From IMG/VR virus record IMGVR_UViG_2061766007_000800: a stretch of DNA of 64,000 nucleotides. One strand, 5' to 3'. A program made the position numbers and the translations under genes. Source of the DNA: an uncultured virus (IMG/VR IMGVR_UViG_2061766007_000800) (taxonomy: Duplodnaviria; Heunggongvirae; Uroviricota; Caudoviricetes). The stretch's first letter is position 1. Each line of letters opens with the position of its first letter. Positions 36,392-47,498 of the stretch are shown piece after piece. The notes under the pieces were generated by a model. That model did not search any database. It saw only the letters and a list, made by a program, of their open reading frames with translations, and was not told the DNA's origin.

Positions 36392-37676
36392 CTTCTTTTC
36401 CGCCTAAATAATTTCTTAATGCAAGAACTTCTTCTTCACTAAGGTCATCAATATCTATAGAAGCATCTTCCGCCATTTGTTCTTCTATACTTTGTCGATA
36501 ATCTGCAAAATCATCATCTTCAAGGACTCGACCTTCTTCTTCATCCTGTTTCATCTCATCCGCAATCTCTCTCTTCTTGATATAATCTTGAATTTGTTTC
36601 CATACAGTAGGGTCTTCCTTAATTAATGACTCATTAAAATTCTGCATATCTTTTAACACTTCATCTATTGTATCTAAATTATATTCAACAGCAAACTCTG
36701 GTATAAATCCAGTTTCCTTTTCGCAAAGTCTAACCATTTCACCAATAGAATCAATCTCTTTAACAACTTCTTCTTTCTTTTGCGCTTCGGTAAACTTAGC
36801 AGATTTCATCATAGTTTCATATACTCTTGATAACTTCTGATATGTTTCAATATCACCAGCATCAACAGCTTGGTTCATTTTAAGAACTGTCTTACATATC
36901 ATTTTAAGTGTAGTATCACGAGCTGCGTCTGAAATCTCAAACGAGTTAATCATTTCTAAGTAAAGTTTTTCCAAAGCCAACCATTCTTCCGCCGTATAAA
37001 ATTTTCCCCACTTTAATGCTAAGAAAATTTTATCTTCCTCTTCGAGCAAACTTGAAAAATCGACTGTTTCAACTTCTTCAAAAGGATGGTCATTTACGGG
37101 ATAAAGAGATGGAGTCTCTTTCTTTGGTCTACCGGGCCCACGTTTGGGTTCCTCAAGCGCCTCTTCCGCAACAATAGGAAATTCAGGCTCAGGAGCAGAC
37201 ATTGAAACAAATGTCTGATACTGCGCCTCTGAAATTTCTCCTCTTTCATAAGACTCTTTTATATTTTGTGCTTGCTCATTATAAGCTGCTTCGCGCTCTT
37301 CTGCTCCCGCAGAATCCTCTTTTTTCTTATCGTATATTTCTTTCCAATATTCTGTATCTGCCCAAGTATTTCTCCATACGCCATCAACTTTCCATTGTTT
37401 TAAACGCATTTTTCCAATATATCTACCAAATACAGACATACCATTAAATTTGTTAGGGTCTTTCTGATATTCTCTATCTCTAATTTTATTCCACTCTTGT
37501 TCAATATAGGGAAAATCAGCGTATTCAATCGCCCAAAGGAAAGTATCTGGTTCGAAATTATCGAAGTGGAGAGTTACACAGGCTTTACATAAGTCAAACT
37601 TAGTACCGTCTCTCTTTTGGTAGAATTTTGTTTCCGCCATAGTTTTTCGGCACTTAGGACAATAATATTCTGCCAT
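36372..37676 (-). CDS. Zn-finger protein overlapping terL; probable terminase small subunit
   Basis: N-terminal CxxC...CxxC; directly upstream of terL. Confidence 0.55.
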   Translation of the reverse strand: MAEYYCPKCRKTMAETKFYQKRDGTKFDLCKACVTLHFDNFEPDTFLWAIEYADFPYIEQEWNKIRDREYQKDPNKFNGMSVFGRYIGKMRLKQWKVDGVWRNTWADTEYWKEIYDKKKEDSAGAEEREAAYNEQAQNIKESYERGEISEAQYQTFVSMSAPEPEFPIVAEEALEEPKRGPGRPKKETPSLYPVNDHPFEEVETVDFSSLLEEEDKIFLALKWGKFYTAEEWLALEKLYLEMINSFEISDAARDTTLKMICKTVLKMNQAVDAGDIETYQKLSRVYETMMKSAKFTEAQKKEEVVKEIDSIGEMVRLCEKETGFIPEFAVEYNLDTIDEVLKDMQNFNESLIKEDPTVWKQIQDYIKKREIADEMKQDEEEGRVLEDDDFADYRQSIEEQMAEDASIDIDDLSEEEVLALRNYLGGKEDGKEEN

Positions 37677-38782
37677 TACTCTTCTGTCTCCTTTTTCTTT
37701 TTATTCTTTTCGCTTCTACACACTTTGCAGATGCTATACCAACCATCTTTGCTTGATGAGTTTTTGCTAAAGAAATATTTATGCGCGAGTTTTACCTCTC
37801 CGCAACAAGAGCAACGTTTCCATTTTCCATATTCTTCTTCTGTATAATGCCAAACAATCCATTCTTCTTTAGCTTGTTTAGCAATCATTTTAGGAATTTT
37901 ATTGCGCCATAATGAAGAAATATAAACTGTTGAATAAGTAACATCAAATTCATCTTTAATTAATTCTCTAATTTCTTCATTAGTTCTGCCGTCAATCTTA
38001 TAAGTAACTATTCGTTCAAGGATGGGACTGCTTGATAGCGCCCTTTCCGCAAGACTATCAAAGTCCATCATCATCCATTTAGAGTCTGAAAGGAATTCTT
38101 CATATGAATCTTCAACAAGAGCAGAATAGTTATTCAAAATCATTTCAATATGTTTTTCATCAAAGAAATTAATTATGCCGTCGCTACGTACCTCCCCGTC
38201 CGCATCAATCCAAATATTTTCTGAAAGGTCTAAATTATGAATACCTTTAAATTTATTTTTATTGTTTACGGTGGCATTAAAGTTACGGAATTTATTTCTT
38301 ATGACATATTGGTCTTTGCGCTGCTCAATAAGTTCTTTGTGTAAATGAAAGCGGCGGAGGCCTGTAGCCTCTTTTTCCAACTCTTCAGTCTTCTTAATGT
38401 CTTCTTGTAATTGCTGAAGATAGGGGTTTTCCGCAATCTCCTCCTCAGTTATTTTACATTTTGGTGTACGGAGGATATTTTTATCATTTGCGATAATATT
38501 GTAGATAAAGTCAGCACTATCCGCATTATTATCATTGCAATTTTCGCATAAGCCTTCGAATGACATTTCATTTTCTTTAAAATATTTTTGTCTATTAGGT
38601 GTTACTATCTTGCGTTCTTTTTTCTCTTGTTTATCCATGGCGAGTACAACATAGTCCGCCATCTTTTGTAAATAATATGGTTTAAGTCTTTCGGAGGGCG
38701 TAGATGCGATAATTTCCTCTGTTTTGGCTACACGATCGATTGGGTCCTCGAGAGTATAGTCCATTTTAATATGTTCGTCCAT
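37676..38782 (-). CDS. HTH plus C-terminal Zn-ribbon protein; possible transcription regulator
   Basis: GRTNEEIRELI...YISSLW helix-turn-helix-like segment; CSCC...CKVC. Confidence 0.55.
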   Translation of the reverse strand: MDEHIKMDYTLEDPIDRVAKTEEIIASTPSERLKPYYLQKMADYVVLAMDKQEKKERKIVTPNRQKYFKENEMSFEGLCENCNDNNADSADFIYNIIANDKNILRTPKCKITEEEIAENPYLQQLQEDIKKTEELEKEATGLRRFHLHKELIEQRKDQYVIRNKFRNFNATVNNKNKFKGIHNLDLSENIWIDADGEVRSDGIINFFDEKHIEMILNNYSALVEDSYEEFLSDSKWMMMDFDSLAERALSSSPILERIVTYKIDGRTNEEIRELIKDEFDVTYSTVYISSLWRNKIPKMIAKQAKEEWIVWHYTEEEYGKWKRCSCCGEVKLAHKYFFSKNSSSKDGWYSICKVCRSEKNKKKKETEE

Positions 38783-39661: not shown

Positions 39662-39988
39662 ATGAATATGTTAACAGTTTTATATAATATGAATACTAAT
39701 AAGAAAATAAAAATGGATAAGGCAACAATAAAAGATTTATATATAGGACGCAAATATGGTTGTGAGTGTCAGAAGTGCCATAAAGAAGTACACGGTAAAG
39801 ACGCGTTTATGCACCACTTGTCAAGCCGAACAAAAAAAGGCAATATGGCTAATCTTTGGGGTACTAAGGCAGGCGAAAAAGAAGTTAAAAAGACTATTCT
39901 CTTATGTGATGACTGTCATAAGGCGCTTCATAACAAGTACGGCAAAAAGGTAACTATCAAACAGAGTAAAGAGTTTATATACGGATAA
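39662..39988 (+). CDS. HNH-like zinc-binding endonuclease
   Basis: CQKC...HH...LCDDCHKALH. Confidence 0.6.
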   Translation: MNMLTVLYNMNTNKKIKMDKATIKDLYIGRKYGCECQKCHKEVHGKDAFMHHLSSRTKKGNMANLWGTKAGEKEVKKTILLCDDCHKALHNKYGKKVTIKQSKEFIYG

Positions 39989-40184: not shown

Positions 40185-40239
40185 AACCTCTTTGCATAGG
40201 ATATAAACAAGAGAACATATAAAAGAGAGGTAAAAAGAA

Positions 40240-40572
40240 ATGGCATTAGAAGTTAGATTTTATAATAATAAGAATGAAAATATGGAAGTTTTTGGTTTAA
40301 GTATATGGGAAGTAAAAGAGGACTTCTTAAACAGCGTTATAGACTTTATCGGTAAATGCGCTATGAGTATGGGTGCTGTTGATGTGTCAATAGACAATAC
40401 ATTATATGAAATGAATTATGATGTAGAAAGTGATGAAATCATATTAGAACAATATTATATATATGATGATATTGATGATTTAGAACAAGGATATGAAAGT
40501 AATTGTTTTTGTGATAATACAGGTTTTTGCGGCGGTTGGTCTTGTCCGCAGTATAAGGCTTGCCACGCGTAG
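40240..40572 (+). CDS. Acidic protein with C-terminal Cys cluster
   Basis: 110 aa; CFCDNTGFCGGWSCPQYKAC. Confidence 0.65.
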   Translation: MALEVRFYNNKNENMEVFGLSIWEVKEDFLNSVIDFIGKCAMSMGAVDVSIDNTLYEMNYDVESDEIILEQYYIYDDIDDLEQGYESNCFCDNTGFCGGWSCPQYKACHA

Positions 40573-40638
40573 AAAGGGGGCATATATGAAATATAGTATA
40601 TATGATGGATGGGCTTTATAGTCCATCTTTTTTATTTG

Positions 40639-40758
40639 GCGCAGCGCTGGCACGCGCCAGAGCTGCGTTTTGTCGGCACGATCGGCAGATTGCACAATTT
40701 TTTAGTTGAAAATTTGTACATTTTGTCTATTGCATAATTCCTATAAGGATGGTATACT
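40639..40758 (+). repeat. Cassette-boundary element, copy 1
   Basis: GC palindrome 40639-40668; TGCACAA 40691-N16-TTGTACA; TTGCAT-17-TATACT. Confidence 0.85.
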
Positions 40759-40764
40759 ATGTAC

Positions 40765-40985
40765 ATAAGATGAGTTAAGGAGTAGCGACCGAGCCTATCG
40801 GGTGGGCGGTGTACGGTTCTCAGAGCAGATCTACCGCATAATGAACAGAGTACCCTCTAAATCGGTGGTGCCACTATGGGGCAGTTTCGCCTAAAAGATA
40901 CCATAGGGTTCGAATTACAGTTTTCCCTACCAAGAAAGTGGAAAGACGATTTCGATGTTGGGCTATCGAGCAGGGTCGGGCATAA
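40765..40985 (+). ncRNA. Candidate structured non-coding RNA (~200 nt), family not recognised
   Basis: Own promoter, no RBS-led ORF, raised GC, seven nested helices. Confidence 0.55.
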
Positions 40986-41014
40986 TTGAATATTTTGTAT
41001 TTTTTATTGCACGG

Positions 41015-41133
41015 CTCAGCGCCAGCGAGCGCCGGCGCTGAGTTTTTAGCATCAGATCAGCAATTTGCACAAAAATTCCCTCGAAAATTTGTATAATCTG
41101 TACATTGTATTTGTCCCGTAATTTTAGTATAAT
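41015..41133 (+). repeat. Cassette-boundary element, copy 2
   Basis: Palindrome 41015-41042; TGCACAA 41066; TTGTAT-17-TATAAT. Confidence 0.85.
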
Positions 41134-41168
41134 GTATTTACAAGGTAAGGGAAAGCGAGGTACTTAAA

Positions 41169-41339
41169 ATGAGAGATTTTGATACAGTTAACGAGATTAT
41201 GAGCAACCTTGATGATTCAACTTATAAGTTGACACAGGAAGCAGCTGACCGTTTTTATTCCATAGGGGATAAGTCCCTTTTGAAACTTGCTTCCAAGCAG
41301 TCAGGTTTAACCCCTGAAGAAATTTTGATGATGTGGTAG
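41169..41339 (+). CDS. 56-aa hypothetical protein (not in ORF track)
   Basis: Hand-translated MRDFDTVNEI...ILMMW; GAGGT RBS. Confidence 0.65.
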   Translation: MRDFDTVNEIMSNLDDSTYKLTQEAADRFYSIGDKSLLKLASKQSGLTPEEILMMW

Positions 41340-42584: not shown

Positions 42585-42667
42585 GTACTTCCAAAGAAAA
42601 AAATAGTTGACAGGGTAACAATTTAATGTTATAATAAATGTATCAAATAAAGAAAGAGGTAAAAAAT

Positions 42668-42973: not shown

Positions 42974-43015
42974 TCTTACAAGCACCCTCAAATTTGAGGG
43001 TGCTTTTTTTTATGG

Positions 43016-43135
43016 CGACGCGCCAACATGTGTCAGCGCGTCGAATTTTTTGTGTCAAGGGGTATTTTGCACAAATTTGAGAGCGAATTTTTGGTTAATC
43101 TGCCTATTGTGTTAATCCTACAACAAGCGTATAAT
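43016..43135 (+). repeat. Cassette-boundary element, copy 5
   Basis: cgacgcgc-N12-gcgcgtcg; TGCACAA 43068; TTGTGT-17-TATAAT. Confidence 0.85.
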
Positions 43136-43141
43136 TAGTAT

Positions 43142-43285
43142 TGTCAGATGAGGTAAGAGATAAGCCAAATCTCAAACCCTTCCCAACTTGCCCCATGCGT
43201 ACTGTACAGGTAAATCGCGCAAGGAAGTAGAAAATAGGTGAATCTCTTTGGCAAGAGTGCGAAATCGAAATTAACAAGTTGGGTG
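43142..43285 (+). ncRNA. Candidate small structured RNA or leader
   Basis: Promoter-driven ORF-less segment closed by a perfect 9-bp helix cccaacttg/caagttggg. Confidence 0.4.
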
Positions 43286-43348
43286 TTGACAAATAAAAAA
43301 TTTAATGTTATAATAAGTTATAATCAAAAGTAAAGAGAGGTAATAAGT

Positions 43349-43627
43349 ATGGAAAAATTAGTTTATGTTACAGTTGACGGTACAAAGGAAACAGATTACG
43401 ACAAGGTAAAGGGTACAGAGTACGAAACCACTCTTGAACCTGTGGTAAAGGTTGAAACCGAAGAAGAGAAGCAGGCAAGACTTGACCGAATCGCTCGTAG
43501 ACAGGCTTACATCAAGAAAGCCTATGATGAGTACAAGCGTCTTGAGGAAGAGCGCCTTACAAATAGGACTATCGCGGTAGAACTTGAAACTGCCGAAGAG
43601 CCTGTAATCGCTGTAACACTTGAGTAG
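43349..43627 (+). CDS. Hypothetical coiled-coil protein
   Basis: 92 aa; promoter TTGACA 43286-17-TATAAT. Confidence 0.7.
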   Translation: MEKLVYVTVDGTKETDYDKVKGTEYETTLEPVVKVETEEEKQARLDRIARRQAYIKKAYDEYKRLEEERLTNRTIAVELETAEEPVIAVTLE

Positions 43628-47290: not shown

Positions 47291-47498
47291 TACTTATGTA
47301 AGATAAATAAAGAAAGCGACTTACAAGAGAGTGAGGAAAACTCCTATGATGTGACCGCGCGGACATTAAGAGCAAACCCATTTCAGTCAATTTCAAAAAA
47401 AAGTAAAAAACCTATTGACAATTAAATAAAGAAATGATATAATAAATATATCAAATGAAACAAAAACAAAATTTTAGAACAAAAGGAGATGTTAAGTT

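Follow-up and report, generated by a model that had tools for sequence, protein, structure and literature searches.

Phage-encoded RNAs that lack an open reading frame (ORF) are known from bacteriophage T4, whose species 1 and 2 RNAs (rnaC/rnaD) are GC-richer, 100-150 nt long and of unknown function. They are processed from the transcript of the tRNA cluster and fold stably.

T4-type phages also carry PeSL (promoter-early stem-loop) cassettes, which combine a GC-rich stem-loop terminator with a σ70-like promoter and a Shine-Dalgarno (SD) sequence. As described in the two sources used here, PeSLs are located in hyperplastic regions of T4-type myoviruses and precede small non-essential genes, the motifs marking the borders of the insertions, deletions and replacements by which close relatives differ (Arbiol et al. 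2010, PMC2839356; Comeau et al. 2014, PMC4122927). An SD sequence without a start codon, finally, has been described for Gram-positive bacteria, where STAB-SD is the 5' mRNA stabiliser of cry3A from Bacillus thuringiensis (Agaisse & Lereclus 1996, in PMC4113751).

The DNA analysed here, a stretch of 64,000 nt referred to as the window in its entirety, contains a unit in which a regulatory module of related design is followed by a GC-rich stretch, the cargo. An initial annotation had read this unit as a cassette whose cargo is a multi-branched non-coding RNA (ncRNA). The cassette stands, as the unit runs from promoter to terminator, contains no credible protein gene and has an odd composition, but the multi-branched fold does not. 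We consider it highly probable that the unit is a swappable PeSL-like cassette, that its cargo holds no protein gene and that this cargo is accessory, all three taken together.

The cassette array and its turnover

The window comes from a large phage. Its minus strand carries late genes at 22-38782, namely those for terminase, portal, three proteins of 1919-2867 aa and a σ-like protein, and many small genes lie on the plus strand from about 39000 onward. The nearest terminases, at 42-44% identity, are those of large Firmicutes phages of Enterococcus (VRE9_4, H1 and EF1, 43-44%) and Geobacillus (E3, 42%) and of the SPbeta-like type; the terminase match in Brevibacillus phage Sundance is 35% identical, and the matching Sundance gene is annotated as YonF. 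The phage is not of the T4 type but a large rumen phage of the Firmicutes type, and near-identical DNA is present in at least 20 ruminant gut metagenome runs from at least 11 studies. None of the 20 runs listed is an RNA run, which speaks neither for nor against expression of the cassette. The σ-factor-like protein (PHROG 5767; 37676-38782, minus strand) has a C-terminal segment of about 50 aa for which endonuclease VII and Lar-like zinc-ribbon families are matched as well. The array of small genes also includes a free-standing gene for an HNH endonuclease (39662-39988, 108 aa).

Seven repeated modules can be aligned in the window, all with a hairpin-promoter-leader design that is evident from a direct-repeat family and from the alignment (Table 1). 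All letters but one of the -10 block, GTATA(A/C)T, are invariant across the seven modules. An inverted repeat, TTGCACAAA-N-AAATTTGTA, is also conserved in all seven, about 10-40 nt upstream of the -35 element, and resembles an operator common to the modules, through which a regulator could control the entire array. A consensus promoter scan did not list the module promoters because their -35 element fits TTGACA at only three of six positions. In five of the seven modules an ATG ORF of 45-151 aa (ORFs of at least 35 aa being counted) starts 32-42 nt after the -10 element; the module of the unit 40633-41012 and the module at 43067 have none.

Table 1. Features of the cassette, its cargo and associated elements; positions are those of the window.
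Feature	Position	Strand	Evidence or remark
Module block order, first part: GC hairpin and T-run, GTCAATAG, operator-like inverted repeat TTGCACAAA...GAAAATTTG			7-module alignment
Module block order, continued: TTGnnn, 17-nt spacer, GTATA(A/C)T, leader TGTAAGRTAA, SD GAGAGGTA, ATG			7-module alignment
Upstream 110-aa gene	40240-40572	+	
Predicted intrinsic terminator of the upstream 110-aa gene	40607-40628	+	Terminator scan: 9-bp stem, then T-run
Whole cassette unit (GC hairpin, operator-like repeat, promoter, leader, cargo, A/T-rich tail)	40633-41012	+	Present or missing as one block; X5 contig
GC-rich hairpin and T-run, module start	40640-40671	+	First conserved block of the 7-module alignment
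Operator-like inverted repeat TTGCACAA...AAATTTGTAC	40690-40719	+	Conserved in modules; direct-repeat family
Putative promoter TTGCAT, 17-nt spacer, TG-n-TATACT	40730-40758 (-10 at 40753-40758)	+	Alignment
Leader with SD-like AAGGAG (40777-40782)	40765-40782	+	Alignment; putative transcription start near 40765
GC-rich ORF-less cargo	40783-40985	+	GC 0.50; stops in six frames; no Rfam or tRNA match
GTG ORF, 30 codons	40802-40894	+	ORF search; without proper SD
ATG ORF, 37 codons	40876-40989	+	ORF search; weak GGTGG 7 nt upstream of ATG
Local hairpin, GCGGT/ACCGC helix (H4)	40806-40837	+	Ensemble probability 0.37-0.84
Local hairpin, CTATGG/CCATAG helix (H6)	40874-40906	+	Ensemble probability 0.62-0.82
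Local hairpin, TTTTCC/GGAAAG helix (H7)	40921-40945	+	Ensemble probability 0.38-0.87
GC hairpin and T-run that opens the next module and probably terminates the cargo RNA	41015-41047	+	Fold of 40766-41048, terminator scan, alignment
Cargo variant G>A	40823		X7; between arms of the 40806-40837 hairpin
Cargo variant T>C	40830		X7, X8, X13; between arms of the 40806-40837 hairpin
Cargo variant A>T	40932		X7, X13; loop of the 40921-40945 hairpin
Second-family promoters, plus strand	42607-42635, 43286-43314, 47415-47443	+	
Second-family promoters, minus strand	38856-38828, 45683-45654, 47202-47173	-	

In the module preceding the cargo, AAGGAG occupies the SD position of the other modules, about 12 nt past the putative transcription start, and no start codon follows it, i.e. 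there is no ATG, GTG or TTG within the next 19 nt. The cargo is separated from the hairpin of the next module by an A/T-rich tail, and in a fold of 40766-41048 this hairpin forms a stem of approximately 10 bp followed by UUUUU. The predicted cargo RNA would extend from about 40765 to about 41047 and thus have a length of roughly 280 nt.

From the type of promoter and its position in the genome we infer that the cassette is transcribed early and by the host RNA polymerase. This can only be inferred because the -35 element is weak, a second promoter family exists and the phage has a gene for a σ-like protein of its own, and the resulting uncertainty of timing and polymerase also counts against a functional cargo RNA. 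The promoters of the second family, which are distinct from the operator-bearing modules, match the σ70 consensus perfectly (12/12; TTGACA-17-TGTTATAAT) and carry a TG extension in five of six cases. The two promoter classes may correspond to two temporal classes. One consensus TTGACA-17-TGTTATAAT promoter, serving the gene at 43349-43627, lies behind a second ORF-less cassette, which consists of a module at 43003-43134 with an SD-like GAGGTAAGAG and no start codon, and of a stretch of about 150 nt at 43135-43285. This stretch has a perfect 9-bp closing stem (CCCAACTTG at 43181, CAAGTTGGG at 43276), its fold z-score being -0.58.

The turnover of the cassettes was analysed in the contigs of four metagenome runs from four studies (X5, X7, X8 and X13). 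An 18,079-nt contig of X5 joins position 40632 to 41013 with ATTT in between, and the unit 40633-41012 is missing exactly. A 2,799-nt contig of X13 is colinear across 40200-41176 and a 397-nt contig of X7 covers 40642-41038; both runs carry the whole cargo and, among the differences listed, only those at 40823, 40830 and 40932 lie inside it, all variant counts being lower bounds since there are 34 further differences beyond those listed. All three listed substitutions fall in hairpin loops or interiors, but as about two-thirds of the positions are unpaired in any model their placement carries little weight. Similarly, the X7 contig, with at least three differences in the 221-nt cargo versus three to eight in the 176-nt flanks (Fisher p 1.0 to 0.07), does not show any sign of extra constraint. 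The X8 contig (depth 3.5) covers 40640-40900 with a T inserted behind 40872 and then continues with unrelated letters, of which the 21 that are readable differ from the window and do not contain the T-loop motif discussed below; the sequence past 40900 matches neither the window nor the fetched loci.

The neighbouring cassette varies as well. Three of the four runs (X5, X7 and X13) have 163 unrelated letters in place of its cargo at 41176-41337, a 56-aa ORF, and retain the following 61-aa ORF, so that one cargo is swapped for another of the same size. X5 also has a hybrid module. The cargo is accessory, as a close relative (X5) lacks the unit 40633-41012, and it is swappable. From this absence together with the replacement of 41176-41337 it follows that whole cassettes come and go at module boundaries, and their presence or absence and replacement among natural relatives is the firm result of this analysis.

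These observations also bear on the idea that the cargo is no transcript at all, but an element acting at the DNA level, such as an origin, a packaging site or a cluster of protein-binding sites. The high GC content of the cargo, its lack of an ORF and its several short inverted repeats would fit such an element. However, the unit is missing in the closely related phage contig from X5 and therefore cannot be an essential cis site, and its location coincides exactly with the cargo slot of a transcription unit. We thus regard a DNA-level element as very improbable.

Composition, coding capacity and origin of the cargo

The GC content of the cargo is 0.502 versus 0.323 for the window and thus well above background, as initially annotated. 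It is the highest of all 203-nt windows in the 64 kb, a level reached by only 0.016% of them and approached at just one further site of the window; the first half of the cargo, 40783-40894, even has a GC content of 0.545. A GC-rich composition in an AT-rich phage is typical of RNA genes, and the cargo is atypical of the coding DNA of this phage, in which the neighbouring genes have GC3 values of 0.25-0.41.

Stops break all six frames of the cargo and there is no SD-led ORF, in line with the earlier statement that an ORF led by a ribosome-binding site is lacking. The accompanying remark that the cargo contains only a 17-codon frame was incorrect, as it holds a 30-codon GTG ORF and a 37-codon ATG ORF (Table 1). 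One or both might encode micro-proteins, and the two could possibly be the halves of a single gene of about 70 aa that a frameshift close to the G-run at 40878-40881 has divided. Apart from the existence of both ORFs, inspection reveals that the A>T substitution at 40932 is synonymous in the 37-codon frame and that the extra T behind 40872 in X8 fuses the two forward frames; moreover, GC1 exceeds GC2 in the 37-codon frame (GC1/GC2/GC3 = 0.51/0.35/0.51). However, the joined frame of X8 stops five codons after 40900, and neither ORF is preceded by the signal of the real genes of the array, all of which have GAGGT 7-9 nt before the ATG. The GC3 values of the two ORFs, 0.51 and 0.63, are unlike those of the neighbouring genes. 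The open frames match no Pfam or PHROG family at E<=10, have no tblastn match in the 143 loci described below and share words with no relative of near or longer length among 5.8 billion clusters. A phmmer search of 1.84 billion proteins with the 37-aa ORF gave two matches, both tandem-repeat proteins and artefacts. Micro-proteins are thus improbable in our view.

A methyltransferase-fragment reading of the 37-aa peptide, based on a match to P0001, a protein with six Methyltransf_24/TylF repeats, was rejected. The E-value sums one weak match six times, the match itself has 27.7 bits with 12 of 29 residues identical, and Pfam models do not see the peptide, which marks it as an artefact.

At the level of DNA or protein, relatives of the cargo were found in none of the collections searched, apart from near-identical metagenome copies. 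By blastn there was no cargo homologue in 50,697 phage records, and plasmids yielded only 27-nt chance matches in E. coli aidB. Neither blastn nor nhmmer detected one in 51 loci around relatives of the σ-like gene (42-63% identity), nor was there any in a total of 143 loci that included 92 chosen by operator pattern, and BLAST against five whole related phage records returned only chance matches of 14-22 nt. Exact 18-20-mers of the cargo occurred once in the viral contigs, by chance in an unrelated GC-rich contig, not at all in the metagenome contigs, and in 185,579 species genomes only as two chance matches in Gammaproteobacteria MAGs; none of these three matches shows similarity beyond 19-22 nt. 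Neither metagenome nor viral contigs yielded a relative in a synteny search that started from the upstream 110-aa protein, and the window contains no paralogue of the cargo.

Related loci were also scanned for GC-rich ORF-less islands, and candidates were found (e.g. in L050), none of them related to the cargo. In L050 (4190-4375, minus strand), a distant relative with a σ-like gene that is 46% identical, a consensus promoter precedes about 115 nt of GC-rich sequence without an ORF, closed by an 8-bp stem, GACAAGTC/GACTTGTC, and followed by a strong terminator (z -2.43 including the terminator). This stretch has no Rfam match and no homologue in the fetched loci. Two related phages, L010 (6750-7250) and L020 (6300-6800, minus strand), contain a non-coding stretch of about 300 nt between promoter-like sites. 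GGGTAGGGTAGGGTAGGG lies close to one of its ends and CCTACCCTACTCTCCCCTAC close to the other, and the stretch might represent a long hairpin or a repeat element.

The most serious rival to a functional RNA is an inert remnant, i.e. a protein gene was lost or truncated, or stray foreign DNA recombined at the modules, so that promoter and SD drive a functionless sequence. An SD at its normal position with the start codon absent is equally expected from a decayed or truncated protein cassette, and two of the seven modules are ORF-less, the second ORF-less unit at 43135-43285 indicating that empty cassettes occur in the array. Both findings count against an RNA, as does the dispensability of the unit in X5, which, together with the replacement of the neighbouring cargo in three of four runs, points to fast turnover. 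The divergence of the X8 copy after 40900 suggests a mosaic cargo, the searches described above found no cargo homologue in the collections covered, and the cargo folds like shuffled sequence (see below). On the other hand, a GC content of 50-55% is hard to derive from the own genes of a 32%-GC phage, no open frame resembles any protein, and the 18-20-mers found nothing but the two chance matches among the 185,579 species genomes. In addition, the cargo is nearly unchanged in samples from three other studies (in X8 only up to 40900). We therefore see an inert remnant as possible, though on the unlikely side.

Predicted folding of the cargo RNA

The arms of all seven helices proposed in the initial annotation are present at the positions given there, and together they would form a multi-branched RNA with long-range helices at 40786/40974, 40792/40960, 40800/40852 and 40859/40947 (H1, H2, H3 and H5) and a T-loop, reminiscent of a ribozyme or decoy. 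The minimum free energy (MFE) structure of 40783-40985 is multi-branched, too, but has different closing pairs. The proposed structure reaches only -30.5 kcal/mol compared with an MFE of -56.8 kcal/mol for the same 221 nt, and its long-range helices are improbable in the ensemble (H1 at most 0.14, H2 0.00, H3 at most 0.06, H5 at most 0.02). Moreover, the sequence of X8 differs, over its 21 readable letters, after 40900, where the 3' arms of three of the four long-range helices lie.

Most structured RNAs of similar size and GC content fold better than shuffled controls. A comparison of the folding energy with dinucleotide shuffles had been named beforehand as a test, and the energy of the cargo proved typical of the shuffled controls, so that the branched RNA fails. 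For 40765-40995 (231 nt), 200 shuffles had an average energy of -61.2 kcal/mol and 174 of them folded at least as well (z +1.01). The z-scores were +0.48 for 40783-40985, -0.53 for 40766-41048, which includes the terminator, and -0.50 for the minus strand. Sliding windows of 80 and 120 nt fully within the cargo gave z-scores of -0.74 to +0.94, and those also covering leader or promoter gave values up to +1.33. Later windows that run past the 3' end of the cargo into the hairpin of the next module reached -1.01 and -2.27, the latter for 40940-41019; all cargo-overlapping windows bar this last one thus range from -1.01 to +1.33. The multi-branched architecture is therefore at the level of chance, and we consider an RNA of this kind highly unlikely. 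In the cargo only the three local hairpins listed in Table 1 are plausible according to the ensemble predictions.

The T-loop-like 9-mer GGTTCGAAT is indeed present at 40907-40915 of the plus strand, but a tRNA-like T-loop is not supported. Its flanks, ATAGG and TACAG, cannot pair into a T-stem (inspection), and although the 9-mer occurs only once in the window, at least one copy turned up in 22 of 100 shuffled versions of the window. ARAGORN detected no tRNA or tmRNA at the default or the 80% threshold and only nonsense intron-bearing calls at 60%. The covariance models of Rfam 15 gave no match at the gathering score over the window, and none of six weak matches at E<=10 over 40600-41150 lies within the cargo, i.e. 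neither a ribozyme nor a tRNA family of Rfam is matched there at this level. The earlier view that the RNA belongs to no recognised family agrees with this outcome, as no catalogued family matches the cargo. As the Rfam models also provide no ribozyme or antitoxin family match, a role of the cargo as decoy, antitoxin or ribozyme is speculation. The value of these tests is mainly negative, in that a branched fold drawn by hand, plausible as it looks with its 'T-loop', does not go beyond chance.

A possible role of the cargo RNA and comparison with known systems

Based on these findings we suggest that the non-structural arm of the phage contains an array of swappable regulatory cassettes and that the cargo fills the slot of one of these units. 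At the promoter, which is σA/σ70-like, the host RNA polymerase would start near 40765 and stop at the hairpin at 41015-41047. The orphaned SD-like AAGGAG at the 5' end might bind 30S subunits and thus shield the RNA from 5'-exonuclease in the fashion of STAB-SD, the body of the RNA would consist of three local hairpins instead of the branched fold, and the RNA may target a component of the host or of a defence system in trans.

Whether the cargo is an accessory functional ncRNA of about 280 nt is, in our estimate, evenly balanced, with at most a very small share of this probability belonging to the branched fold. Points in favour of a functional RNA are a GC content that is extreme for a phage with 32% GC, the complete transcription unit predicted for the cassette and its retention across several herds and studies. 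Besides the points raised above, a folding energy at the level of shuffles for every boundary tried argues against it, as does the lack of homologues and hence of covariation evidence. We further speculate, with considerable reservation, that the cargo is a new orphan RNA for anti-defence or host takeover, a plug-in traded by rumen Firmicutes phages behind a shared promoter module. If so, it would rely on the three hairpins, the G-rich 5' half and a ribosome-binding 5' end and not on a globally stable fold, a mode of action that we likewise put forward only tentatively. PeSL-type shuffling, which in T4-type phages involves ORFan proteins, would then also include RNA cargo in an unrelated phage lineage.

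The cassette resembles STAB-SD in having an SD-like AAGGAG near the 5' end without a start codon, and by analogy the orphan 5' SD would act like STAB-SD in a Gram-positive host. In contrast to STAB-SD, AAGGAG is here the normal SD of a module that was left without a gene. Unlike the species 1 and 2 RNAs of T4, the cargo has a promoter of its own, a predicted RNA length of about 280 nt and no excess folding energy. Should the RNA exist and have a function, it would be a further hint, among a growing number, that the phage cassette arrays of small accessory genes carry RNA besides protein cargo.

The closest parallels are with the PeSLs. The seven modules share a repeated composite motif with a σ70-like promoter, although its -35 element fits the consensus at only three of six positions, each module opens with a GC-rich stem-loop and T-run, predicted to act as a terminator, and indels and replacements are bounded by the motif, as seen when X5 skips 40633-41012 and when 41176-41337 is replaced. 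Unlike in PeSLs, the SD in front of the cargo has no start codon and the cargo no gene, whereas five of the seven modules have both SD and start codon, and the modules carry an operator-like inverted repeat as an additional conserved element. As the phage is not of the T4 type, the cassette is an analogue and not a member of the PeSLs. A real and functional cargo RNA would also show that shuffling mediated by promoters and terminators, as described for T4-type phages, takes place in large rumen Firmicutes phages as well.
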